The notes below the pieces were generated by a model, which was not told the origin of the DNA, did not search any database, and worked only from the letters and a program-made list of their open reading frames with translations. A DNA stretch of 64,000 nt from Promethearchaeota archaeon (GTDB taxonomy: Archaea > Asgardarchaeota > Lokiarchaeia > Sigyniarchaeales > SOKP01), in NCBI GenBank assembly GCA_048938445.1, contig JBHLME010000004.1:1-64000 (forward strand). Reading direction: 5' to 3'. Position numbers and translations under genes: made by a program. Below, piece by piece: positions 44,822 to 62,652 of the stretch. Numbering within the stretch: position 1 is the first letter of the stretch; each line of letters begins with the position of its first letter.

Positions 44822-45742
44822 ATGGTTAGAACTCCTAAAATTATTACTATTACAGGCGGTAAAGGAGGTACTGGTAAGACACTTTGTGCAGTTAATATTG
44901 CAACCATGTTTAAAAATGAAGGAAAAAAAGTTTTATTAATAGACGGTGATGTTGAAAATCCTAATACTTATTTATTACTCGGTGGAACTTTACTAAATAA
45001 AAAGGAAGTACATTTCTTTAAACCTAATATTCTTAAAGATAAATGTACCAAATGTGGATTATGTGCAGAAAATTGTGCACCACATGCTCTCCTTTATTTA
45101 GAAAATGCGATACCAATCCCTATTTTAAGTGTATGTTCCGGTTGTAAATTATGTTATAAAATTTGTCCCTCTGAAGCAATTCTACCGGATAGTAAAATAA
45201 TAGGATGGAAATATCAAACGAAAGTAAATCAAATCTCCTTGTTAATTGGTGAATTAAAACCATCAGAAGCCCGTTCAGCAGCAGTAGTTGATGCACTTTT
45301 ACAAGATCTTGAAACCATTATTGATAATAATCCTGAGACCTATGATATAGTTATTTTAGATACGGCGCCAGGAGCTCACTGTGATGTGGAATTATTAATT
45401 GAGAAATCAGATTTTGTCATTCCTGTAACTGAACCAACTAAATTTGGAAAATTAGATTTATTACGGATAATTGAATTGATTGAGCTATTACAAAAGGAAT
45501 ATAAAGTAATTGTGAATAGATCTTCGTTATTAGGGTATCGAGAACCGTTTTTGAGGGAATTATCCGAGAATAATATTGAAACACTTGGAGATATCCCATT
45601 AGATGATGAGGTTGTCAAATCTTATTGCCAAGGAACACCATTAATGGACTCTGAAAGTGTTTTTAATAGAAAAGGAGATGCATATTTAGCTTTTATAAAA
45701 ATTTTTGAAAATTTAAAATCTTGGATTAAAGACAATATTTAA
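44822..45742 (+). CDS. MinD-family P-loop ATPase with inserted ferredoxin
   Basis: GGKGGTGKT, DGDVENPN, two 4Fe-4S motifs, VTEPT. Confidence 0.9.
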   Translation: MVRTPKIITITGGKGGTGKTLCAVNIATMFKNEGKKVLLIDGDVENPNTYLLLGGTLLNKKEVHFFKPNILKDKCTKCGLCAENCAPHALLYLENAIPIPILSVCSGCKLCYKICPSEAILPDSKIIGWKYQTKVNQISLLIGELKPSEARSAAVVDALLQDLETIIDNNPETYDIVILDTAPGAHCDVELLIEKSDFVIPVTEPTKFGKLDLLRIIELIELLQKEYKVIVNRSSLLGYREPFLRELSENNIETLGDIPLDDEVVKSYCQGTPLMDSESVFNRKGDAYLAFIKIFENLKSWIKDNI

Positions 45743-45759
45743 ATGGTGACTAGTTTCTC

Positions 45760-46680
45760 ATGGAAAAAAAAATTATAGCGGTCATTTCAGGAAAAGGTGG
45801 TGTTGGAAAAACATCTCTTACAGCATCTTTAGCAAGTTTGGCTTCTAATGAAATAAAGATTGCACCAATTATTTTAGATTGCGATGTAGATGCTCCAAAT
45901 TTGGCTATAATTCTACCAGCAAGGTCAGAGAAGGAGATAGAATCAATTGATACTTATACTACTTTAAAAGCTGAATTTATAGAAGATAAATGTGTTCAAT
46001 GTAAAAAATGTATCGATGAGCATTTTTGTGAGTTTAATGCTTTAAGATGGGATGCTGAAAGTCAAATACCAAAAATTGATTATTTAGCATGTGAAGGATG
46101 TGGAGCGTGTAAAGTATTATGCTCTGAGCATGCATTTAAAATTGATGCGGTTAAAAGTGGCGAAATCATCTCTTATAAGATTAATACTGGTCATCCATTT
46201 GTATATGGAAAAACTAGGTTAGGAAGTACTACATCAGGGAAATTGGTGTCAGATATAAAAGAATATACTAAAAATTTAAAAGAATTTAAGGAGAGTAATT
46301 TAATCATAATTGATGGTCCACCGGGTATAGGATGCCCCGTAATAGCTACTGTTTCGGGATTAGATTTCGTTATTACGATTACTGAACCTACTCCATCAGG
46401 TCTTCATGACCTTATTAGAGCAATTGAAGTAGTACAGGAATTTAAAATCCCGTTTGGAATAGTCATTAACAAGTCTGATTTAAAAAGTCCTTTTCAAGAG
46501 AAATTTAATGAATATATAACTCAAACAGATTATACTTTAATCGGAAAAATTCCATATGATGTAAATATTCCTCGAGCCTTGTCATTTGCTAAACCAGTTG
46601 TTGATTTTGACCCAGATACAAATGCGAGCATCGCAATTAAAACAATTTATAAAAATTTAAAAAAGTTGTTATGGTCTTAA
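45760..46680 (+). CDS. MinD-family P-loop ATPase with inserted ferredoxin
   Basis: SGKGGVGKT, DCDVDAPN, CEGCGAC, DGPPGIGCP. Confidence 0.9.
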   Translation: MEKKIIAVISGKGGVGKTSLTASLASLASNEIKIAPIILDCDVDAPNLAIILPARSEKEIESIDTYTTLKAEFIEDKCVQCKKCIDEHFCEFNALRWDAESQIPKIDYLACEGCGACKVLCSEHAFKIDAVKSGEIISYKINTGHPFVYGKTRLGSTTSGKLVSDIKEYTKNLKEFKESNLIIIDGPPGIGCPVIATVSGLDFVITITEPTPSGLHDLIRAIEVVQEFKIPFGIVINKSDLKSPFQEKFNEYITQTDYTLIGKIPYDVNIPRALSFAKPVVDFDPDTNASIAIKTIYKNLKKLLWS

Positions 46681-48348: not shown

Positions 48349-49359
48349 TTATAAAGCTTTAATCTTTTCTTGAAAAATAATTTTATTTCTTTTCTCTTCT
48401 ATTAAATATAAAATATATTCATGATCTTGGGAAATATCCGGAAGTATGAATAATACTTCTTCACCTGGAAGCCATTTTTCTATATTATCATAAAGAATCA
48501 ATTGTTCAAAAAATTCATATAATGATGAGACCTTGATAATTATTTTATCGAATATATCTTTTGTTCGATTTGTTATAATTATTTCTACTTCTTTTCTATC
48601 ATTAATTACATTTATTTTATTTATTCTGAAAGGATTTTCGCTTTTATAATATAGATCTTGGACTTTAGGCTTATCAAATAATTTGATATTTGAGAATCCA
48701 ATTTTTTTATCATTACTTACAATATAACTTATAGGAACTCCTTTTAATGAGAGATATGAAATTGCTTTTTGAATTTTTAAAATTGTTGTATCAGTTTTTT
48801 TTATTACCGATTGAAAATATTGCGAACAAATGTTTTTAATAAGTTTACTAATTCTTTTTTTTATCTTGTCTCCCCTTTCAATTAATTCTTTAGATTTTTG
48901 AGTTTTTATCATATCCAATTTTTCAATTTCAGCTCTAATCAATTCCGAAAGGTAAAATTTAAAATGTTTATTGATTCTTTCTGTCATTTCTTTGATTAAT
49001 GCACCACCAAAAATGTCCATCTCAATGGGTAATGCAAGAATTAATACTATAGTATCATAATTTTCTTCTTCTAATCCCGCTCTTCTTTTAATTCGCTTTG
49101 AAGGAACTAAGAATTTTTTCGCAAAATACATTTTATCCCCATATTCCAAATCTACCCGATCAAGAGAGGTCTTATCACTAAGATCTAAGAACCATATGGA
49201 ATGGATCCGAAGTATGTGCATTTTTTCTTCATTTTTTTTTATAACATCCTCTGGACTTACTAAAATTGGAATATGACCTAATTTCTCATCAAAATATAAT
49301 AAAAAAACTTCACATAATTGTTCTGCTTGAATAATTTTTCGTTCATTCTCAGTTAACAT
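48349..49359 (-). CDS. Hypothetical protein, longin/uDENN-like N-terminus suspected
   Basis: VFLLYFDEKLGHIP motif; beta-rich C-terminus; last gene of the hydrogenase operon. Confidence 0.6.
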   Translation of the reverse strand: MLTENERKIIQAEQLCEVFLLYFDEKLGHIPILVSPEDVIKKNEEKMHILRIHSIWFLDLSDKTSLDRVDLEYGDKMYFAKKFLVPSKRIKRRAGLEEENYDTIVLILALPIEMDIFGGALIKEMTERINKHFKFYLSELIRAEIEKLDMIKTQKSKELIERGDKIKKRISKLIKNICSQYFQSVIKKTDTTILKIQKAISYLSLKGVPISYIVSNDKKIGFSNIKLFDKPKVQDLYYKSENPFRINKINVINDRKEVEIIITNRTKDIFDKIIIKVSSLYEFFEQLILYDNIEKWLPGEEVLFILPDISQDHEYILYLIEEKRNKIIFQEKIKAL

Positions 49360-49401
49360 GTTATAAAATTATTTTTCCTCCATTAATTTTTTAAATTCTA
49401 T

Positions 49402-50703
49402 TTAATGTGTAGCACAAGAGATACAAGGATCAAATGCTCTTATCATCATTTGAATTTTTTTTTTTACAAATTGTAGATCTTTTTTTTCATATAATTTTTG
49501 AGCATATTGTGTAATCATTTTATTAATTAGTGGGAGATTTATTTCAGTGGCTATAAAAAGTTTTGCCTCTTCTATAATTTTCTTATTATTTATGCGATAA
49601 TGATGGATTAGCGTGCCTCTTGGAGCCTCAACAACTGCAATTCCATTTTGGTTTTTGATTGTAGATATTTCAGGGAGTGGAAAAGAATTCTTTAAAATCG
49701 GATCTTCCAAGAGATATAATGTTTTAATTACTTCAACATCCATTTCAATTAATCTTAAAAAATTAGCATATAAGAGATTGTTCCGCCATGATTTTTGAAA
49801 AAAATTGAGGTATGAGGAAATTTGATCCGTTCCATAACCTTCTATAATTTGATTTCGAGCTATTGGTCCGACTATATAATTTCTATTATTTTCAATGTTG
49901 AAATCAATTCCATGCAGATTAGGATCTTTGTCAAAATATGAGTTATAATGAATCTCGGAAAAATCTTCGTATTTAGTGTTGCTCTTTTTAAGTGTTAAAA
50001 CACCCGCATACCTATCATAATCTTTATTCCTGTTTAATGCCAAATAATAGGGATTTGGAAGCATAAATTCTTCTGGAGGTGTAAATTGTGAAAAAATATT
50101 GATGAATTCTTCAATAATTGCTTCTAAAATAAACGATGATTTCTCAAGATATTTTTGGGCAATTTTTATGTTTTTTAATGAAGGTTGAAATATAGTACCT
50201 CCCGGTATGGGTGTTATTAAATGTATGGAACGGCCTCCGAAAAGAATATCAAGATCATTACCAATTTTTATTATATCAAAGATATTTGAAGTTAATTGAC
50301 TATTATATTTCAATAAATCATTTAAATTAAGAGTATTTTTACTTAAATTAAAGATTTCTAAAAGATCAGGAAATGATTGAAAATAAAAATGCATCGCATG
50401 TGATTTTAACAACTCACCGACCATCAAGATGCGTCTTATAAAAACAGCTTGTTGATGAGGCTTGATATTATACATTGTTTCTATAGTTTTACAGCTTACA
50501 ATACTTTGTGATGCATGACATAATCCACATATTCTTGAAATTATTCTGGGAACATCTGTTATTTTTTTTCCTATAAGTAAATTTTCAAATCCTCTGTATG
50601 GTCCAATTTTAAATTCTACATGAGATATTTCATCATCTTTCATAAAAATTTCCAAATTTCCATGACCTTCGACTCTCATGCATACATCTACCACCTTTAG
50701 CAT
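49402..50703 (-). CDS. Group 3 [NiFe]-hydrogenase large subunit
   Basis: RVEGHG, RICGLC, EAPRGTLIHHY, DPCISCATH then stop. Confidence 0.92.
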   Translation of the reverse strand: MLKVVDVCMRVEGHGNLEIFMKDDEISHVEFKIGPYRGFENLLIGKKITDVPRIISRICGLCHASQSIVSCKTIETMYNIKPHQQAVFIRRILMVGELLKSHAMHFYFQSFPDLLEIFNLSKNTLNLNDLLKYNSQLTSNIFDIIKIGNDLDILFGGRSIHLITPIPGGTIFQPSLKNIKIAQKYLEKSSFILEAIIEEFINIFSQFTPPEEFMLPNPYYLALNRNKDYDRYAGVLTLKKSNTKYEDFSEIHYNSYFDKDPNLHGIDFNIENNRNYIVGPIARNQIIEGYGTDQISSYLNFFQKSWRNNLLYANFLRLIEMDVEVIKTLYLLEDPILKNSFPLPEISTIKNQNGIAVVEAPRGTLIHHYRINNKKIIEEAKLFIATEINLPLINKMITQYAQKLYEKKDLQFVKKKIQMMIRAFDPCISCATH

Positions 50704-50704
50704 A

Positions 50705-51466
50705 TTATCGCCTCCAAATTTTTGGTTTTGAAAATCTATAGAATATGCCAGAATATTTTTTTAAATCTTTCACAAGATTAAGCAAACTTAAGAAATTAAT
50801 TATACTCGAAGTAAAATCTCTTGAGACGGGTCCAAGACATCCTTCACATGGAATTCCTCGCTTTATGCATTCATGATCACATCCCTCTCTAGTAATAGGT
50901 CCTAAGCACATAATTCCTCTACTTAAGAAGCAATTGGTATTTTCTTCATAATTATTGAGTTCAATATTGTGAGGATATAGCTGATTAATCTGAGTAATCG
51001 GATTGAATTTAAAAGTAGTTTTGTAGGGACATTCTGAACATAAATTCTTTTTAGATAATTCAATATTTTTTCTCTCTAATAGTTTTATCAGACAATTTCC
51101 AAATAATTTTGACGGTGGAGGACAACCTGGTATGATTCCATCTATCTCTATAAAATCTGATAGAGGGGCGGCAATCTTTTTTTTTGATAAACTTAAAATT
51201 CCTCCAAAAGCGGCACATGTCCCTAATGCGTATACTTTTTTTGTAGATATTCTTATATCTTTAAGAAAGTCAATCTGTGAATCCTCTGAAACACATCCTT
51301 CTATCAATGCTATATCACATAAATCTGCCCGAGGTTTATCAGATATAAAAGGAAAGTAAGATATTTCTGTTCTCTCTAGAAGTTGAGGAAAGATATCTAA
51401 GGAAATCAAAGAAGATATACAACCGCTACAAGATGTTAATGAGGTAATTAGAAATTTAAGTTTCAA
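50705..51466 (-). CDS. [NiFe]-hydrogenase small subunit (MvhG/HydD-like)
   Basis: SCSGC, GTCAAFGG, PGCPP, CLGPIT, CEGCLGP. Confidence 0.9.
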   Translation of the reverse strand: MKLKFLITSLTSCSGCISSLISLDIFPQLLERTEISYFPFISDKPRADLCDIALIEGCVSEDSQIDFLKDIRISTKKVYALGTCAAFGGILSLSKKKIAAPLSDFIEIDGIIPGCPPPSKLFGNCLIKLLERKNIELSKKNLCSECPYKTTFKFNPITQINQLYPHNIELNNYEENTNCFLSRGIMCLGPITREGCDHECIKRGIPCEGCLGPVSRDFTSSIINFLSLLNLVKDLKKYSGIFYRFSKPKIWRR

Positions 51467-54002
51467 ATTTGTATTCCTCCTTTAATAGGTTATAAAATCT
51501 ATTACTAATGTTTGAAAATTTTATTCCTTCTACAGCATTTAGGTTTTTAACAATTATATTCCTGCCTAACCTTGGCCCTAAGACCTTTTTTAATAATTGC
51601 ACTTTTTTCTGTATTTTTTGAATGCCATCTAGATATCTGCAAGCATCTTTCCTACATCCAATAATCATTACTCCATGAAATCCCCTTTCAAGAGCTCTTA
51701 TTATGAAATTAGTATCAACCCGTCCGGTGCAAGGAACTCTAATGATAAATATATTGGGACGATAAAATTGTTTTTTAAGACCAGCATCATCGGCTGCAGC
51801 ATACCCACAAGATTTACAGCAAAATGCTAAAATCTTAGGAGAAACGTTAAATTTTGAGTAAATGTCTATAGTTTTAAAAATCTTTTCATTGGTATCAATA
51901 TTCATCTCAATAGCATTAGTTGGACAGACGCTTACACATGTTCCACATCCTTTACATTTAAATTTATCAATATTTATTTTTTCCCCTTCAATCGTTATGG
52001 CATTGTATGGGCAAGCATTAACACACAATGAACAAAGTCCGCATCTTGTCTCATCAAGTTCTATCCCTGTGAATTCTGAAATTAAATAATCTTTCGATAG
52101 AAGTGATATTATTTTAAGTGCAACATTATTGGAAATATTTATTGTTGATTGATAGTTAAAAGGACCTAGTATTGTTCCAACTCCATAAATCCCTGAGGCC
52201 AATGTTTCTTCACTCATGAAACCGTTATCATTTAAAGTAAAATCAAGAGTTTTTCTGAGGGTTTTTAAATCCTTATTGGGCATTAAATTGAGGTTCAAAA
52301 TAATCAAATCACTTGGATATTCTTTTGAATCTGCAATCACTATATTTTCTTTATCATTTTTTTCTATTTTGACTTGTGAAACATAATGAACTCTTGAATC
52401 CATAGATTTCATAATTGGCTCATGGTTATGATGGAAATTTTTTAAATCATAAAAGGTATTTACGTGACAATCTGGGTTTTTTACTTTAATGCAATTTAAG
52501 TATTTTAGAGCAATATTATCTGCAAGTTCGGAATGATCGTGAGCAGGTCCAACATCCTGAATGATGGAGATGGATTTTGGAGGTTTTCTATCAGATAATT
52601 TAACTATTTTACCTTCAGTAGGACCATCTGAAGATAATATCCTTTCAAATTCTACTGAAGTTATGATATTATCCTGAGGATTATAGTGATAATCTTTCAG
52701 ATCTGAATATAAATCAGCACCTATAGCGATAACTTTCACACCCACTTTAATTTTAATTTCCTCTGGTTTTTGAGTTAAATCTATGGCTTTATTCACGCAC
52801 GCTCTTTCACAAATCCTACAATTTAAGCAATTTTTAATATCAATTTCTTCTATTAAAGGAGCATAGGGATATGAATTTTGAAAAGGAAGAAAAATTACTT
52901 TCCTGTTTACAAGATTAAACTCATATTGATTGGGTTTTTCCACACTGCATACTTCTATACATTGTTTGCATCCAGTACATTTTTTTTCATCTACAAAGCG
53001 AGGTTTTTTAATTAAATTTATGGCGAAATTGCCGACTTCACCAGAAACACTCTTTATTTCCGTATTAGTGAATATTTCAATGTTTTTTTCTTTTACAATT
53101 TCTCCTATCAATTCTGAAATGAAACATATTGAGCAATCCCCCATTTTATAGATTCTATGCCACCGTGCCACTTTTCCTCCTAAAGTTGGAGATTTTTCAA
53201 TTAAATACACTTTAATACCTGCTCTCGCCAAATTTAAACCTAAGGTCATTCCTGCTATACCCCCTCCTAATATAGCACAGCTTTTTTCAACCTCAACTCT
53301 TTTTACTTTAATTTCTTTTTGCAGATATATACGCTCGACAGCGGCTTCGATTAATAATTGTGCCTTTTTTAAAATCAGAGCTGAATCATCTTTGCTATTA
53401 ATCATTTGATGCACCCAACAACATTGTTCTCTAATATTTGCTATTTCAAGATTAGATCGATCGATTAATCCCTCAAAAATCCTTTCAAAAACATGTTGAT
53501 GTGTCTTGGGAGAACATGCCGCAATTACGATTTTATTCAAGAAGTTTTCTTTAACCCAATTGGAAATTTTATCCAAATTTTTCTCTTGACATAAATTTTC
53601 AAATATCTTTACTGAAACAACATTTTGTATTTTATTGATATAGTTCTCTAAAGCGTTGATGTTAATTGTATTAGAAATTTCAGTATTACAGTTGCAAATA
53701 ATCACTCCAATTCGATTTATTTCACTGCCTTTTGAATTAAGATATTCTATTTCTTCTCCTGATAAAATTCTTTTATTTATATTAAGAATTTTTAAAATTC
53801 TTTTACCATCTTCAGTTAAAAAATATGATTTTTTATCTTTACCAATAAGAGAACCGAGTTTTCTTAGGTGGAAATTTAATTGTCCTGTTTGATCTAAACC
53901 CAATTTATCCATTAAATCTGTGTATGGTATGTAACCCTCTTTTTCAAGGAGTAGTAAAATTTTTCTTCTAAACTCATGAGACAATATTGAGTATATATCC
54001 AT
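51456..54002 (-). CDS. Winged-HTH + HdrA-like + MvhD fusion protein
   Basis: aa 1-75 ArsR-like wHTH; CNC, AACSP, NIREQC, GGGIAG, ferredoxin motifs; C-terminal AFCC, RVPCTGRVD, GCRKDAC. Confidence 0.88.
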   Translation of the reverse strand: MDIYSILSHEFRRKILLLLEKEGYIPYTDLMDKLGLDQTGQLNFHLRKLGSLIGKDKKSYFLTEDGKRILKILNINKRILSGEEIEYLNSKGSEINRIGVIICNCNTEISNTININALENYINKIQNVVSVKIFENLCQEKNLDKISNWVKENFLNKIVIAACSPKTHQHVFERIFEGLIDRSNLEIANIREQCCWVHQMINSKDDSALILKKAQLLIEAAVERIYLQKEIKVKRVEVEKSCAILGGGIAGMTLGLNLARAGIKVYLIEKSPTLGGKVARWHRIYKMGDCSICFISELIGEIVKEKNIEIFTNTEIKSVSGEVGNFAINLIKKPRFVDEKKCTGCKQCIEVCSVEKPNQYEFNLVNRKVIFLPFQNSYPYAPLIEEIDIKNCLNCRICERACVNKAIDLTQKPEEIKIKVGVKVIAIGADLYSDLKDYHYNPQDNIITSVEFERILSSDGPTEGKIVKLSDRKPPKSISIIQDVGPAHDHSELADNIALKYLNCIKVKNPDCHVNTFYDLKNFHHNHEPIMKSMDSRVHYVSQVKIEKNDKENIVIADSKEYPSDLIILNLNLMPNKDLKTLRKTLDFTLNDNGFMSEETLASGIYGVGTILGPFNYQSTINISNNVALKIISLLSKDYLISEFTGIELDETRCGLCSLCVNACPYNAITIEGEKINIDKFKCKGCGTCVSVCPTNAIEMNIDTNEKIFKTIDIYSKFNVSPKILAFCCKSCGYAAADDAGLKKQFYRPNIFIIRVPCTGRVDTNFIIRALERGFHGVMIIGCRKDACRYLDGIQKIQKKVQLLKKVLGPRLGRNIIVKNLNAVEGIKFSNISNRFYNLLKEEYKFET

Positions 54003-54246
54003 TTTTTCATCCCTTCCACCAATTAAAGGATTATTTTTTTTTGAAAAATTAAATTTTTAAAAAAAATAATTTTGAAAATTTTTTTTATCGAACTATTTTC
54101 ACTAAGATATTAATAATATGAATAATATTTAAATATTTTGGTTAAATCCGAAAAATATTCGATAAATATATAAGTTACTTCAAATTATATTCTATTATTA
54201 GTTAGTAGAATTTGAATAACTAATAAAGTTGTTAAAAAATAAACTT

Positions 54247-54300
54247 TGACAATTAGATTTATCAAACCAAATGAAATTCTTGTTGTCATTTTGTTTAAAT
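54247..54300 (+). promoter_or_regulatory. Promoter element TGACAA-N30-TTGTCATTTTGTTTAAAT (copy 1)
   Basis: Same layout at 59857-59910. Confidence 0.7.
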
Positions 54301-54358
54301 CTCTTAAAAAGATTCTTTACATAGGATATTAAATACCATAAAAATAGTTAAAACTGAG

Positions 54359-54985
54359 GTGGAAAGTCGAATGGAAGTGCTTGAATTAAAGCCGTTGAAA
54401 AAAAAAAGAGTTTGCGCATATGTTGCCAAGAAAAAAAAAGATGATTTTAATGATTTTTATCTGGATAAATTAAGAGATTTTATTATTAGGAAAAAAATTG
54501 ACTTTATAACAATCGATTTCAATGTGGATATGAAAGAGTTTAATGATTCAGAACTTGCAAAAACATTAAATGAGATGAATATTAGATATTTTCAAGTGGA
54601 CATACCAGAATATGCAATGGGATATATCTATCAAGAAATTGTAGAAAAAACTGAACTACTAAATGATTTATGTGGAGAATTTGAATCAATGAAAGAAAAA
54701 GATACTTTAAAAGGAGAAAGTCTAAAAAATTGGATAGATGTATTGAGAGAAGATATTCAAGAAAAAGAAATATACATTAGTTTGAGATTAAGACCACAAT
54801 GGATTGTCAAAAAAATGTTAGATATTGCTAAAACCATTAAAACTGAAGAGGTATCTTTACTTCATCTCGTCCAGGCAGACATATGCGAGGATATTTGTAA
54901 TCAAGTTACAGAATATTTAAGAGAATTAGACGTGAAAGTTGTTCAATATACTAAAAAACATAATATAATAAATGTAGAATTTTAA
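54359..54985 (+). CDS. Uncharacterised paralog family, member 1
   Basis: VLELKPLKKK N-terminus, YFQVDIPE, LKNWIDVL. Confidence 0.8.
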   Translation: MESRMEVLELKPLKKKRVCAYVAKKKKDDFNDFYLDKLRDFIIRKKIDFITIDFNVDMKEFNDSELAKTLNEMNIRYFQVDIPEYAMGYIYQEIVEKTELLNDLCGEFESMKEKDTLKGESLKNWIDVLREDIQEKEIYISLRLRPQWIVKKMLDIAKTIKTEEVSLLHLVQADICEDICNQVTEYLRELDVKVVQYTKKHNIINVEF

Positions 54986-55006
54986 AAAAAAGAGGTTGAA
55001 AAAAAA

Positions 55007-55738
55007 ATGCCAAAAGTATTAGAATTAAAACCATTGAAGAAAAAACACCTAAAACTGATTATGGTTGAAAGCGAATTTCCGGTTGAGTGGTGGTTTGAGG
55101 CTCCAAAAAGAGCAAAAGAAGATTTAGTCTGGAATTTACATTTAATATCTAAGGAATATCTTCAAGTTATTGAAGAATTAATTAATAAATATAAACCAGA
55201 CTTCGGAACGGAAGAAAAACCAGCGAATTGGGATGATTCACCAAATCAAATAGATCCATTAGAGGAACTATTCAAACTAAAAAATATTTCCTTCCAACAT
55301 GTAGATATTGATGATAACGCTAGAGATTATTTATCATCTGCATTGGATGAACATAGATCTACTATAAAAAAATTAGAAAACAGAATTCGAGAAATAATGG
55401 AAAAAAATGGAGTTATTCCTGAAAATGATGAATTATTTCAAAGATTAGTTCTGTGGAAAGAATATTTAGAACAAGATTATGAACAACAAGAAGATGAAGT
55501 TCGCTATAATATTAGAGAAGCTTGGATGATGATGAATATCATAAATCTTGCAAAAAATATTGATGGAACAAAACTCAAAGGATTATTCATATGTGATCTA
55601 CGACATTTCAATGGAATTGAAAAACTCGCAAGTGAATTAAATATAGACATTGAGAAAATAAAAATTAAGAGATCTATTAAAACTGAGGATGTTGAAGAGG
55701 AGCTAGAAAAAAATGTCGAAATTGAAGTTAAAGAATAA
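55007..55738 (+). CDS. Uncharacterised paralog family, member 2
   Basis: VLELKPLKKK, FQHVDIDD, LVLWKEYL, ICDLRH. Confidence 0.8.
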   Translation: MPKVLELKPLKKKHLKLIMVESEFPVEWWFEAPKRAKEDLVWNLHLISKEYLQVIEELINKYKPDFGTEEKPANWDDSPNQIDPLEELFKLKNISFQHVDIDDNARDYLSSALDEHRSTIKKLENRIREIMEKNGVIPENDELFQRLVLWKEYLEQDYEQQEDEVRYNIREAWMMMNIINLAKNIDGTKLKGLFICDLRHFNGIEKLASELNIDIEKIKIKRSIKTEDVEEELEKNVEIEVKE

Positions 55739-55752
55739 TTAATTTAGAGAAT

Positions 55753-56769
55753 ATGAGGAGGAAAATAAAAATGCAAAAAGAAGATCTGGAAAAAAAAGTA
55801 CATTCTATTCTTGGAAGAAAATCTATTATTGAATTAACTCCAATAGTTATAAAAAAAAAAGAAACATCCGATAAAATCTGTTACTTCTTTGATACTGATG
55901 AAAATGCTTCTCCTTTTGACATTAATATGGCCTATGATGCTGGTTTTGATATTGTGGTTCCAATTAGTAGGATGACTGCTGATCAAGTTCCCAAACTCGT
56001 TCAAGATGCAATTTTTTCTAGGAAACCAAATGCTCCCACAACATTTTTTATAGGGGGGTCCAATGTTAAAGAAGGTGAAAAAATAGCCAAAAAAGTCTTA
56101 AAGTCTTTAGTACCACCCTTTGAATGCCCTGTTATTATCGATCCAAGAGGTTCACACACAACAGCTTCAGCAGTCGTCGCAATGACAATTGATGTTGCTC
56201 TAAAATTTCATAATATTAAAGATTTAAAAGGCAAAAAAATAGTAGTATTTGGAGCGGGGCCTGTTGGAAGGATTGCAGCTATTTTGGGAGCAAAAATTGG
56301 AGCTGATACGTGCATTGTGGAAACTTGGGATAAATCAAGCCAAGATTTTATCACGAATTTAGCAAATGAATTGAAAGAAGAAGCAGGTAAGGGTGCAACT
56401 GCTATTAAGGGAATATTTGCCCCAAATCTCGAAGATCGAGAGAATTTAGCTATTGATGCTGATATTATATGGTCTTTAGCAGCAGCAGGAATTGAAATTT
56501 TGTCAGAAAATTTAATGAAAAAATTGCGCGGAAAGAAAATTGTGGTAGATATAAATCTTGTCCCACCTTATGGCATAGAAGGCATTAAGCCAAAACATTA
56601 TAACGAAGAACTTTATCCTGGGATGTTTTGTATCGGTGCATTAGCGTTAGGTAGATTGAAATCTAATTCTGAGAGTGAAATTTTAAAAGAAGCCGCTAAT
56701 ACCAAGGGATCAAAAGTATTTGACTATAATTATGCATTTGAAGTTGCTAAAAAGCTTTTAAATAAATAA
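55753..56769 (+). CDS. MtdA/MtdB-like NAD(P)-dependent methylene-H4MPT/H4F dehydrogenase
   Basis: SPFDINMAYDAGFD, DPRGSHTTA, GAGPVG, DINLVPPYGIEG. Confidence 0.82.
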   Translation: MRRKIKMQKEDLEKKVHSILGRKSIIELTPIVIKKKETSDKICYFFDTDENASPFDINMAYDAGFDIVVPISRMTADQVPKLVQDAIFSRKPNAPTTFFIGGSNVKEGEKIAKKVLKSLVPPFECPVIIDPRGSHTTASAVVAMTIDVALKFHNIKDLKGKKIVVFGAGPVGRIAAILGAKIGADTCIVETWDKSSQDFITNLANELKEEAGKGATAIKGIFAPNLEDRENLAIDADIIWSLAAAGIEILSENLMKKLRGKKIVVDINLVPPYGIEGIKPKHYNEELYPGMFCIGALALGRLKSNSESEILKEAANTKGSKVFDYNYAFEVAKKLLNK

Positions 56770-59132: not shown

Positions 59133-59375
59133 TTTTTAAACCTCCACCCCTTTTTTATTAATAATAAAATGCATTTAGATAAGATATTGAAAATAATTTA
59201 ACTTTTAAAACGTTAATTGACTCCGTAAATTTAAAAGACTATTTTTTTTATTAAAATGGAATTTAGATAATTAAAATTATCAAATTGATAAAAATTTTTC
59301 TTATCAAACTATTTAAATTTAGATCTTCTGATTATTTAATTAGAATAAAATAAATTGATATAAAAAATAAAAAAG

Positions 59376-59642
59376 GTGAATAAATATATGGAGACCATAA
59401 CAAGAGTGGAAATGGATCAACTTATTGGTGGAAGGGTAAATAATTCTGATGCAGAATTTCGCTCTGAATTTCTGAAGGGATATTTATGGGCTGAAATTGA
59501 CAAACAAGAGCAATTTATAGAAAAACTCAGCCAAGAACTTAAATCTATGAAAAATAGAGACTCTTTTGATGCCCAATACCTTGAGACATGGATTGAGTCC
59601 TTAAAAATTGATCTTGAAAAAGAAAAACAATTATTAAAATAA
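59376..59642 (+). CDS. Short member of the paralog family (helical hairpin only)
   Basis: KGYLWAEI...SMKNRDS...LETWIESL aligns with MGYIYQEI...SMKEKDT...LKNWIDVL of 54359. Confidence 0.7.
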   Translation: MNKYMETITRVEMDQLIGGRVNNSDAEFRSEFLKGYLWAEIDKQEQFIEKLSQELKSMKNRDSFDAQYLETWIESLKIDLEKEKQLLK

Positions 59643-59856: not shown

Positions 59857-59910
59857 TGACAATAAAAATTATCAAAATTATGAAAAGGAAAATTGTCATT
59901 TTGTTTAAAT
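59857..59910 (+). promoter_or_regulatory. Promoter element TGACAA-N30-TTGTCATTTTGTTTAAAT (copy 2)
   Basis: Same layout as 54247-54300. Confidence 0.7.
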
Positions 59911-59969: not shown

Positions 59970-60560
59970 TTGGTAGCTATAAATAATCGAGCAAGGTTAA
60001 AAAAAAACTTAATAATATATTTAGTCGGATTTGAGAATAATAGCACAAAATTTGAAAATTTAAAAGAAATATTTTGGTTATTCAAGGATAGGTTGGTTAA
60101 TTACGCAACATTCTATATTGCTGATGACAATTCTATATTATGGCAAGATTCTCCTCTTCCAGATTTATTAAAATCATATAATATTCCTTATTTTGAAATA
60201 GAAATTCCTAAACAAACAAAAATGTTTTTTGATGATAAAGTTCAAACAATTAAAAAATATATGACTAAGGATTTGCACGAATATAATCTTTTAGTTGATA
60301 AAAATTGTGCTAGAGGTCGTTATTTAAAATTTTGGAAGGAATTATATGAAAATGAACTCAAAGAAATTAAACGGTTTTTTGAATATAAAATTATACCAGT
60401 TTACATAGCAGAATCTATATTAGAAAAACTTGAAGGAATGTTAGATGAAGATTTATTGTTGTTGCATTTTGGTGAGATAAGTACTTTTGGAGAAATAATG
60501 AAAGTAGTAAAACATGTTAATTCAAAAATTGATATCTCCTATATACACTATATGAGCTAG
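59970..60560 (+). CDS. Uncharacterised paralog family, member 4
   Basis: YNIPYFEIEIP, GRYLKFWKEL, IPVYIAESIL, LLLHFG. Confidence 0.75.
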   Translation: MVAINNRARLKKNLIIYLVGFENNSTKFENLKEIFWLFKDRLVNYATFYIADDNSILWQDSPLPDLLKSYNIPYFEIEIPKQTKMFFDDKVQTIKKYMTKDLHEYNLLVDKNCARGRYLKFWKELYENELKEIKRFFEYKIIPVYIAESILEKLEGMLDEDLLLLHFGEISTFGEIMKVVKHVNSKIDISYIHYMS

Positions 60561-60711: not shown

Positions 60712-62652
60712 ATGGATACAAAGGATAAAAGTCGAATTTTCGTAGCTATCTGTCAATGAGGATTAAATATCACGGAAGTAATTGAATGTAAGACTTTAGC
60801 AGATTATACAAAAAATCTTCCTAATATTGTAGGCAGTGGGAGTTATATCAGTCTCTGTACTGCTTCGGGATCATCATTTATTCAGCAAAATATTGAGTCC
60901 ACTAAAGCCAATCGATTGATTATTGTTGCTTGAACGCCAAAGACACATGAGCCTGTTTTTAAAACAATATTAAAAAATATTGGAATTGATTCATCTTATT
61001 TAGAATTTGTAAATATAAGGGAACATTCCTCATTTGTCCATAGAAACGATAAGAATGGTGCATTGAATGTAGCAAAAGATCTTATTAGAGGAGCAATTGC
61101 TAGAGCCGCAAATTTAGAGAAAATTGCTATTAAAAAAATCGATTTAACTAAAAAAATATTAATAATAGGTGCTGGAGTAGCCGGATTATCAGCAGCAATA
61201 GATTTAGCGAATTTAGGTTTTGATGTGAATATCGTTGAAAAAAGACCTAGCATTGGGGGTCTTATGGCTAAACTTGATAGAACCTTTCCTACGGATGATT
61301 GTAGTATTTGAATATTAGGGCCGATTATGTTAAAAGTAGCGAATATTCCTAACATTCAATTGTTTACATATACAGATATTGAAGATATTTCAGGTCATAT
61401 TGGAAATTTTAAAATTCTTATAAAACAAAAAGCAAGATATGTTACTAATGATTGCAATGGATGCGGAGCCTGCGTAGAAGCGTGTCCTGCATATGGATTT
61501 GATGAATTTAATGAAAATCTCAACTCAAGAAGGGCAATATATATTTATTTTGCTCAAGCGGTACCTTTAACAGCTCAAATAGATATGGAACGTTGTATAA
61601 ATTGTAAATTATGAATAGATTCTTGTGAATTGAATGCTATTGATTTTAATCAGAAGGATGTATTTACAAATTTAAATGTGGGGTCAATAATTGTTACAAC
61701 CGGTCTCGATGTTCATAAAGGAAGAGAATATGGCAGAGGAAAATATCAAAACATATTAACTCAGCTTGAATTGGAAAGAATATTGGCTCCAAATGGACCA
61801 ACTTCTGGACATTTAGTAAGACCTTCTGATGGAAAGCGACCTAAGAAAATATTATTTATAAATTGAGCTGGCTCAAGAGATCGTAATAGTCATCCCTATT
61901 GTAGCGTTGTATGCTGTAATTTATCCGTAAAAAACTCAAAATTAATAAAAACAGAATACCCTGATACAGAAATAGTTGTAAGTTTTATAGATATGAGATG
62001 TGCTGGAAAGGACTATGAAGAATATTATAATAGAGCAAGAGATTGTGGAATAATATTTCTTAGGGGTCATGTTGGAAAAATAAAAGAAGATCCTACAACA
62101 AAAGACCTACTCGTACAAATTGAAGCCTTTAATATGGAACACTACTTGGAAATGAAATTTGAACTTATTGTGTTGTCTTCAGCGTCAATTCCTTCAAAAT
62201 ATGCAAAAAAAATAAAAAAAATCTTAGCTTTGGAAACAAGCAGAGATGGATTTTTTAAAGAAGTTCATTCACGTTTAAATTTAATCGATACTAAAATTCC
62301 AGGAATTTGCATTGCAGGAGCTGCACAAGGCCCAAAGTCAATACCAGAAGCGATAATTCAGGGAAGAGCTGCAGCATCTTCTTTGTCGGGTATTATGAAT
62401 AAGGATAAATATGAAATACTTCTCATTCGAGGATATATAGATAATCATTTATGCTCGAAATGTGGATTATGTCAATTAAATTGTCCTTACAATGCAATTA
62501 CAATAAATAATAATCATGCTGAAGTCAATGAGATTACTTGTAAGGGATGTGGAACTTGTTTAGCAAATTGTCCATCCGAAGCGATAACACTAAAATATTA
62601 TAGAGAAGCTCAATATGAAGAACAAATTGATGCTATACTATTTGAATCGTAG
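60712..62652 (+). CDS. hdrA: Heterodisulfide reductase subunit A, selenoprotein with 5 in-frame TGA (646 aa)
   Basis: Track ORFs 61063, 61327, 61630, 61993 share one frame; TGA at 60757, 60931, 61309, 61612, 61864, all at Cys motif positions; ends at TAG. Confidence 0.9.

Follow-up and report, generated by a model that had tools for sequence, protein, structure and literature searches.

A predicted ArsR-type winged helix-turn-helix fused to the HdrA-MvhD flavoprotein of a [NiFe]-hydrogenase locus in Asgard archaea: a candidate trigger enzyme beside an operator-like palindrome

Hydrogen exchange is central to models of Asgard syntrophy and of eukaryote origins, and we know of no mechanism by which H2 metabolism is sensed or regulated in Asgard archaea. 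Among the described systems closest to the one reported here, the H2-sensing hydrogenases HoxBC/HupUV of group 2b, which work with HoxJ-HoxA, have a large subunit without C-terminal extension and signal via a separate kinase and response regulator, SurR of Thermococcales is a stand-alone, redox-switched winged helix-turn-helix (wHTH) protein of ArsR type for hydrogen-metabolism genes, and PutA, BirA and NadR are bacterial bifunctional enzyme/regulators, or 'trigger enzymes'. RbkR, an archaeal riboflavin kinase with a wHTH, is described as having experimentally validated operators at its own genes (PMC5397151), and HdrA2 of Methanosarcina acetivorans is described with HdrB2C2 and F420H2 as its partners (PMC5861303). 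Here we analyse a 64,000-nt stretch of DNA from a Promethearchaeota archaeon (contig JBHLME010000004.1; hereafter the window, to which all plain coordinates refer), in which a single gene links a wHTH, ArsR/SmtB-type by predicted fold and sequence family, to an HdrA body and an MvhD domain, next to the genes for both subunits of a [NiFe]-hydrogenase. With a probability of roughly 55%, we propose that the products form an active hydrogenase-flavoprotein trigger enzyme, of which the tethered wHTH would autoregulate the locus.

The fusion gene (51456-54002, minus strand) belongs to a series of four consecutive open reading frames (ORFs) on this strand, encoding 848, 253, 433 and 336 aa. Within the 848-aa protein, the wHTH of residues 1-80 (53763-54002; Pfam DUF7347) is followed by a linker of residues 81-96 (53715-53762), by an HdrA body (51867-53714) composed of an N-terminal four-Cys domain, an FAD/thioredoxin-reductase-like domain, an inserted ferredoxin and a C-terminal ferredoxin, and by an MvhD/FlpD [2Fe-2S] domain of residues 724-841 (51480-51833). 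The gene for the MvhG-like small subunit (253 aa; 50705-51466, minus strand) starts with TTG and overlaps the fusion gene by 11 nt, and the gene for the MvhA-like large subunit (433 aa; 49402-50703, minus strand) follows after 1 nt, in agreement with the ORF layout given in the first-pass annotation of this DNA.

As a test of how widely the fusion occurs, a word-indexed protein search yielded 4544 proteins at E <= 1e-10, of which the best 120 were analysed. These best 120 are 67-85% identical to the window protein, mostly 843-855 aa long (816-855 save one of 749) and nearly all labelled DUF7347, and clustering at 50% gave further full-length fusion clusters at 34-40% identity. The depositors' labels on the entries include Lokiarchaeia/Promethearchaeota, Helarchaeota, Freyarchaeota and Jordarchaeum, with one cluster labelled by its depositors as Bathyarchaeia. 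When 400 genomes drawn from the window's phylum were surveyed (threshold E <= 1e-140), 133 gave a match, and the wHTH-HdrA-MvhD form, for which a survey of Asgard genomes with attention to synteny had been suggested on first reading, recurs in full from residue 1-2 in about 119 of the 400 (row count). It is spread over eight families (fN; loci fetched for comparison are given as Lnnn and genomes as Gnnn): the window's own family f1, with 92 of 134 genomes, f4, f5 and f6 of the window's order and class, and f21 (56% identity), f28 (51%), f19 (39%) and f31 (37-38%). The other survey matches, which start near residue 95, represent HdrA-MvhD paralogues. The order fusion-MvhG-MvhA was found at every one of 8 Asgard loci fetched, of which the lowest has 37% identity, and at 3 of 3 Bathyarchaeia loci (11/11), and neither MvhG nor MvhA adjoins a wHTH-less HdrA-MvhD paralogue at any of 16 loci, on which ground these paralogues were rejected as orthologues. 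Architecture, conservation and synteny are thus direct observations.

The same data bear on an artefact, in which an assembly chimera or a mis-called start would have fused a separate regulator gene to hdrA. A few entries of 816-821 aa without the DUF7347 label are what a start call at Met31 would yield, but the window gene runs as a single open frame uninterrupted by stops, independent assemblies supply more than 120 full-length homologues, and survey rows not cut by a contig end begin at residue 1-2. Near 53750, where the first-pass annotation had asked about coverage, contigs from two studies bridge 53714-53759 (contigs of public runs X1, 53413-54124; X2, 53418-53984; X5, 53609-54124). A separate regulator gene read from an internal start was likewise rejected, the frame being continuous and conserved and no ATG lying nearby. 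Homologues, survey and bridging contigs together rule out both a chimera and a fusion unique to this genome, and we leave the artefact practically no chance.

The N-terminal domain was examined by sequence and by predicted structure. Residues 2-71 match the DUF7347 wHTH family (Pfam E 6e-11, 42.8 bits against a cut-off of 27.6), and a profile of the N-terminal 140 residues finds as best PDB match the putative ArsR repressor 1y0u (E 5e-6), with weaker matches to PagR, PH0140 and MntR. The AlphaFold2 (AF2) model of residues 1-92, with a predicted local distance difference test score (pLDDT) of 87, has the ArsR/SmtB topology H-H-(E)-H-H-E-E-H (H, helix; E, strand), and its best Foldseek matches, CadC, NolR (one entry with DNA), YodB, HlyU, PagR and SmtB, have TM scores of 0.6-0.73 and E values of just 1e-3 to 2e-2, modest because the domain is so short; all the top matches are DNA-binding regulators of ArsR/SmtB/MarR type. 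Other DUF7347 proteins of the same genome also match the arsR HTH_5 family. The ArsR-like wHTH recognised on first reading is therefore real as far as Pfam, 1y0u, AF2 and Foldseek can tell. In 38 sequences, H9, R12, L19, G40, N43, H45, Y60, L62 and G66 are invariant, and T39, G40, N43, H45 and L46 of the recognition helix show little or no variation in homologues as distant as 35% overall identity. The net charge of the wHTH is +1 to +6 in 17 of 17 sequences, the remainder of the protein being near neutral, and mean column identity among the 120 homologues is 0.84 for residues 1-80 and 0.79-0.81 for the body. By family, predicted fold, charge and helix conservation, the domain looks like a DNA binder.

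Residues 83-93 have a pLDDT below 50 in the AF2 model of the whole protein (85.9 overall) and are flanked by two confident domains, giving a flexible linker of about 12 residues between wHTH and HdrA; as judged from the homologues, the wHTH is under selection and tethered to the enzyme body. Two copies of residues 1-92 predicted together scored 0.34 against a mark of 0.42. Among 37 HdrA-like matches of the own genome, the wHTH is found on the fusion protein only.

DUF7347 stands at the N-terminus of a second enzyme in the same genome, where one frame of more than 588 aa (L062, contig C64) joins the wHTH to an ATP-cone and NrdD, the anaerobic ribonucleotide reductase. This is a second candidate enzyme-regulator fusion, and it suggests that the lineage makes enzyme-wHTH fusions repeatedly.

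An exact 16-bp palindrome, GACAATTAGATTTATC, lies at 54248-54263 in the divergent promoter region, 261 nt ahead of the fusion ATG and 111 nt ahead of the start codon at 54359. A second exact copy is found at 59266-59281, at -110 from the start of an 88-aa ORF at 59376, and a third at 59858-59873, at -112 from the start of a 196-aa paralogue at 59970. The stretches 54003-54358 and 59857-59910 had been singled out for binding assays on first reading. Repeat finding revealed the same module before these three paralogous genes, with the palindrome starting 110-112 nt ahead of the start codon and followed, after about 20 nt, by a TTGTCA half-site and a TATA-like TTTAAAT; as an 18-mer, half-site and TATA-like sequence at 54283-54300 (plus strand) recur identically at 59893-59910, with two exact copies in 64 kb. 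A one-mismatch copy of the palindrome at 54074-54089, at -87 from the fusion ATG, is weak alone; in related loci, sites lie at about -91 to -96.

The palindrome was then followed, as the strict 16-bp pattern GAYAAW-N4-WTTRTC, through 1.49 kb of upstream DNA from each of 37 fusion loci. In an unbiased count of 5-mer inverted repeats with spacers of 2-10 nt, GACAA-N6-TTGTC ranks first, with 10 observed against 0.03 expected. Strict sites, 23 altogether, are present upstream in 20 of the 37 loci, and not one occurs in about 250 kb of coding or downstream DNA. Fifteen of the 23 lie within 500 nt and eight at -1062 to -1482; at G188, the sole distant-site locus examined in detail, an FrhB-like gene stands between site and fusion gene, and the palindrome sits with the first promoter of the operon, at -91 from the FrhB-like start. 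Of 25 sites, 24 fall between genes, most of them at a distance of 83-126 nt from a start codon, and one-mismatch copies recur near -95 and -74. The strict element is found in three families, f1, f21 (L038, L045) and f19 (L041); f31 and f4 have it with a single mismatch.

Its specificity for the locus is seen on several scales, the element being rare genome-wide. The own genome holds 34 strict sites against 13-26 in shuffles, three of them within 5.6 kb at the locus, and in five other genomes the numbers of sites stayed near those of matches to a reversed-pattern control (18/13, 17/13, 7/10, 8/9 and 6/1), while in each of the five, 1-2 sites fall just upstream of the fusion operon. No strict site was found in 94 kb around 16 wHTH-less paralogue loci, two of them from genomes with positive loci, and none at a fusion-less 243-aa/MtdA-like locus (one genome). 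A search of the own genome for paired sites, each with one mismatch at most and both within 250 nt, revealed no wider regulon: of the 19 clusters obtained, all but the fusion locus look like noise. By sequence comparison, the palindrome is a conserved, locus-specific, operator-like element not described in the first-pass annotation.

Several points weigh against regulation of this locus by its own enzyme. Thirty of the 37 loci come from one family, so that site counts overstate independence. Strict sites are missing from 17 of the 37, and eight lack even a one-mismatch site within 500 nt, although in six of these eight an FrhB-like gene lies directly upstream, so that the promoter comes close to where the fetched DNA ends. 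Only half-sites were seen at L040 (f28) and L044 (f6), no strict site was found upstream of three Bathyarchaeia loci, and the proximal site of the window itself, at -87, carries a mismatch. The link between wHTH and palindrome rests on co-location, and another regulator could bind. In addition, the wHTH of BamF, an MvhD-like adaptor of an HdrA-type complex, is described as a protein-protein interface (bioRxiv 10.64898/2026.04.10.717634), and in a cultured Lokiarchaeon a [NiFe] hydrogenase is listed among the most abundant complexes (PMC11216029); if that is the window-type enzyme, such abundance would be unusual for a specific regulator. At two of the Bathyarchaeia loci (L067, L068), an ATAAG...TTTAT inverted repeat with a longer spacer was noticed by eye about 100-155 nt upstream, from which no conclusion is drawn.

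In a rival reading, the wHTH would not bind DNA but be a docking or assembly module for protein partners (for example the 208/243-aa, MtdA-like or FrhB-like proteins), and the palindrome would be the operator of another regulator. In the account of BamF (bioRxiv 10.64898/2026.04.10.717634), its wHTH contacts BamI in the BamE HdrA-type complex, the window enzyme may be very abundant if the report on the cultured Lokiarchaeon (PMC11216029) applies to it, and the partner genes co-vary with the operon. A docking surface, however, would leave unexplained a recognition helix that is kept down to 35% identity, the basic charge in every one of the 17 sequences and the fact that the closest matches, by sequence as well as by fold, are DNA-binding repressors. 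The palindrome, moreover, is specific to this locus, and the conserved six-gene cluster contains, among ORFs of at least 80 aa, no other recognisable DNA-binding domain. We consider the docking module rather unlikely.

Turning to the enzyme, the HdrA body aligns over residues 94-712 to a solved HdrA (PDB 8rvu_a, E 3e-115), and the NCBIfam model that it fits best is HdrA2, of the HdrA-MvhD fusion type; scores for the HdrA/HdrA2 equivalogs are 584, 435 and 374 bits, all below the respective cut-offs of 1100, 1300 and 1400. The FAD motif GGGIAG aligns to that of the reference, with G246, G248 and G251 invariant, the AF2 model of the body is confident, and the CSIC pair (CSxC) is kept. Among the 120 homologues, the N-terminal four-Cys cluster (C103, C105, C138, C163) and the ferredoxin cysteines (C342-352, C392-402, C654-664, C683-693) are 99-100% conserved, and C728, C729, C732, C758, C783 and C788 of the MvhD domain 97-100%. 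The MvhD/FlpD domain, already named on first reading, scores 107.6 bits against a Pfam cut-off of 22.3 (E 5e-31; MvhD 5odc_D, E 8e-22).

In residues 483-497 (52512-52556, minus strand), the window protein has 'DvGPAh...eLADnia' where 8rvu_a has 'CvGSRd...yCSrvCC', D...LAD replacing C...CxxxCC, which leaves one [4Fe-4S] site without any of its four cysteines. We take these four to be the ligands of HA4. The alignment bears out the earlier reading that the FAD motif and ferredoxin clusters persist, the CxGSR and CSxxCC ligands being gone. HA4 is described as passing the high-potential electron from FAD towards HdrB (PMC13580544; PMC12350162). Its cysteines are absent from all sampled fusions of the window's family and also from f4, f6 and f21, whereas the motif QC...CSxYCC is intact in the wHTH fusions of f19, f28, f31 and Bathyarchaeia, so that HA4 was lost later than, and separately from, the gain of the wHTH. 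No hdrB or hdrC was found next to the fusion operon in 11 loci inspected; an hdrC-like ORF lies 9 kb off. In the HA4-less enzyme of the window's clade, electrons would probably move between H2, FAD and either ferredoxin or a different partner, and not to or from a heterodisulfide.

That hdrC-like ORF lies beside a second hdrA (60712-62652, plus strand), which the first-pass annotation had listed as intact about 7 kb away; the gene is present, its start 6.7 kb from that of the fusion, and its frame of 646 aa requires selenocysteine at five in-frame TGA codons. Each of these coincides with a cysteine position of HdrA, in CxC and AACSP of the N-terminal cluster, in the CSxC pair, at a ferredoxin cysteine and at the first HA4 ligand. 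HdrA selenoproteins of Asgard archaea are already on record (PMC11227280).

The hydrogenase itself retains the Ni-Fe ligand motifs RICGLCHASQ and DPCISCATH in the large subunit, which ends at the His of the latter. Its best NCBIfam scores, 170 bits against 700 for ShyA and 158 against 800 for VhuA, are far below cut-off, and its best PDB matches are 7t2r_D and MvhA 5odc_F; the small subunit matches Oxidored_q6 of Pfam (E 5e-17) and, below cut-off, VhuG of NCBIfam (E 4e-35). By best matches the hydrogenase appears group-3-like, the curated 3c equivalog scores lying far below cut-off. In a C-terminal scan of related loci (L038-L045, L067-L069), no residue follows the His of DPCxxCxxH in the window protein or its L043 counterpart, 8 of the remaining 10 loci show 5-10, and the L040 large subunit gave no motif match; the count is 25 in solved MvhA and in a bifurcating [NiFe] hydrogenase. 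The large subunit may mature without the usual C-terminal cleavage. With Ni-Fe ligands, FAD motif, CSIC, five of six HdrA clusters and the MvhD cysteines conserved, the enzyme looks intact.

Such features have to be weighed against a view in which catalysis is given up. The first-pass annotation took the protein as a degenerate product of a duplicated Mvh-Hdr module repurposed as a transcription-factor complex that reads H2 or redox state. The order of events does not fit this story, since HA4 is kept in the older wHTH fusions; the retained ligands of [NiFe], FAD and the other Fe-S sites and the presence of FrhB-like and MtdA-like genes in the operon are also opposed to it. Taken further, this view would make the complex a dedicated H2/redox sensor and not a metabolic enzyme, a one-component counterpart of the bacterial regulatory hydrogenases with transcription as its sole output. 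The loss of HA4 in the window's clade and the short stretch of 0-10 residues past the last Ni-ligand His (25 in PDB MvhA) are in line with this, and another [NiFe] large subunit is encoded in the genome, as are separate MvhD genes and numerous other HdrA paralogues. A domain scan found no kinase or response-regulator gene in the cluster, as group 2b would have. A dedicated sensor is nevertheless improbable, because four-Cys HA4 occurs in the fusions of f19, f28, f31 and Bathyarchaeia, all catalytic and electron-transfer ligands besides HA4 stand at 97-100% in the 120 homologues, the same operon encodes FrhB-like and MtdA-like enzymes, and identity is high along the whole 848 aa.

For the trigger enzyme that we favour, the following picture can be drawn from sequence comparison. 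A catalytically competent cytosolic MvhA/MvhG-like [NiFe]-hydrogenase would be wired via the fused MvhD to the HdrA-type FAD/Fe-S flavoprotein. HdrA is dimeric in solved complexes, so that two wHTH domains would be available for a 16-bp palindrome, and we infer that this pair binds the palindrome just upstream of the likely B recognition element (BRE)/TATA sequences of its own and the neighbouring promoters, those of the paralogues of no known family and of the MtdA-like gene. In this way the complex would act as regulator of its own locus, and from the position of the palindrome it could either activate or repress. In Mvh-Hdr, HdrA's N- and C-terminal domains together with MvhAGD are described as a 'mobile arm', which swings during turnover (PMC13580544). 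Since the wHTH is tethered to a mobile-arm domain, its DNA affinity could depend on the redox or catalytic state, which is plausible.

A stronger form would make the whole complex a one-component H2/redox-to-DNA transducer with no separate sensor protein, in which electron flow from H2 or reduced ferredoxin would shift the arm, alter the wHTH spacing in the HdrA dimer and so set palindrome occupancy. We hold this as possible, if doubtful; if true, the promoter of a hydrogen-metabolism locus would be the place where Asgard and Bathyarchaeia cells read H2 or redox state directly. Conversely, DNA binding might be independent of redox state, with the unassembled fusion subunit repressing or activating the operon so as to balance subunit stoichiometry, or acting as a constitutive local regulator. 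The same cis-element and wHTH evidence would serve this case, the data requiring no redox signal, but a 16-residue tether to a domain described as moving (PMC13580544) is kept across more than 60% divergence, for which a role of the enzyme's state would be the easier account, an argument only, and we regard redox-independent binding as very improbable.

Divergently to the fusion gene, 54359-56769 (plus strand) encodes two paralogous proteins of 208 and 243 aa and a 338-aa homologue of MtdA, the methylene-tetrahydromethanopterin (H4MPT) dehydrogenase (55753-56769; Pfam Mpt_N E 9e-26 plus a Rossmann part). The 208/243-aa/MtdA-like genes are linked to the hydrogenase genes in L038, L039, L041, L042 and L045; the 243-aa and MtdA-like genes are divergent and upstream in the window, L038, L039 and L045; in L041 and L042 they follow downstream in the same orientation, and in L041 the two are a single 564-aa ORF. 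Conservation of an MtdA-like gene beside the hydrogenase module extends from loci of Lokiarchaeia type as far as f19 and f31, a hint that the module may supply or draw on the H4MPT one-carbon (C1) pathway. The paralogue family (54359-54985, 55007-55738, 59376-59642 and 59970-60560, plus strand) has no Pfam family, with pairwise E values of 5e-11 and 1e-5, and three of its genes share the promoter module of palindrome, TTGTCA and TATA-like sequence. A TraB/GumN identity for the 243-aa neighbour was rejected, since its protein atlas score of 0.82 is below a meaningful level and high scores were reached only with unnamed Asgard clusters.

In many genomes of one genus, an FrhB/FdhB-like gene (363 aa) is the first of the operon (L043, 6685-7776; L017, L019, L027, L031-L033). 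A decayed locus was met in L072 (G190, contig C30; 8614-10544), where a fused 243-aa/MtdA-like ORF and a 74-residue remnant of the large subunit are left and neither fusion gene nor palindrome was found; four fusion-less genomes (96-99% complete) are also without the 243-aa gene, as judged with this query. Directly upstream of the fusion operon in Bathyarchaeia L069 (1510-5629) stand two genes, NuoF/HydB-like and NuoG/HydD-like, and one that joins a [NiFe] small subunit to an [FeFe]-hydrogenase domain, a trio that corresponds to the 'hybrid hydrogenase' gene set described in PMC11216029. In the window, 44822-46680 (plus strand) encodes two adjacent 306-aa paralogues with a MinD/ParA/NUBPL-type P-loop NTPase and 4Fe-4S ferredoxin motifs, which may be Fe-S cluster carriers. 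The 336-aa ORF (48349-49359, minus strand), which lies within the span marked on first reading, gave no family in the Pfam/NCBIfam scan and no counterpart in 8 related loci, and we leave it outside.

The fusion is at present annotated only as 'hydrogenase iron-sulfur subunit' or 'HdrA'. In line with the first reading, to which no description of such a system was known, our literature searches found no published account of an HTH-HdrA fusion in Asgard archaea or Lokiarchaeia and no mention of DUF7347, supplementary tables, which may list the gene, being outside the search; in the accessible part of a paper on archaeal fusions, HdrA-HdrA-MvhD fusions are mentioned with no HTH, and the words 'DNA' and 'helix' do not occur in a preprint on HdrA domain architectures. 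The locus offers a testable handle, a candidate DNA-binding domain built into a hydrogenase flavoprotein together with a defined 16-bp candidate operator, and a small candidate regulon made up of its own operon, an MtdA-like C1 enzyme and paralogues of no known family. The existence of HdrA variants without HA4 matters, in addition, when electron bifurcation is inferred from gene content.

Enzyme-regulator fusions and hydrogenase-linked regulation are kinds already known, and wHTH-HdrA-MvhD would, for the present, be a new combination of them. With MvhAGD-HdrABC of methanogens (PDB 5odc, 8rvu, 9sw2-6), the window system shares the HdrA domains, MvhD, MvhG, MvhA, the FAD motif, CSxC and five clusters, but it adds an N-terminal wHTH, has MvhD fused to HdrA, is without adjacent hdrBC, belongs to a clade lacking the HA4 ligands, has an absent or short MvhA extension and remains far below the equivalog cut-offs of NCBIfam (584 against 1100 bits for HdrA2). 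HdrA2 of M. acetivorans (NF040770), the best NCBIfam match, has the architecture of HdrA with C-terminal MvhD in common, and differs from the window protein, besides the score below cut-off, in the wHTH, the hydrogenase linkage and the loss of HA4. The wHTH of BamF, in class II benzoyl-CoA reductase, is described as lying within the MvhD-like adaptor of a bifurcating HdrA-type complex and contacting BamI, whereas that of the window protein stands at the N-terminus of HdrA, is basic and ArsR-like, and is encoded beside a palindrome. Compared with HoxBC/HupUV and SurR, the predicted wHTH is covalently part of a hydrogenase-associated flavoprotein, with a hydrogenase that is group-3-like by best matches. 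Like RbkR, PutA, BirA and NadR, the fusion joins an enzyme to a predicted DNA-binding domain, with candidate operators at its own locus; unlike these, its enzyme is a multi-subunit [NiFe]-hydrogenase/flavoprotein complex, for which DNA binding is predicted from sequence.

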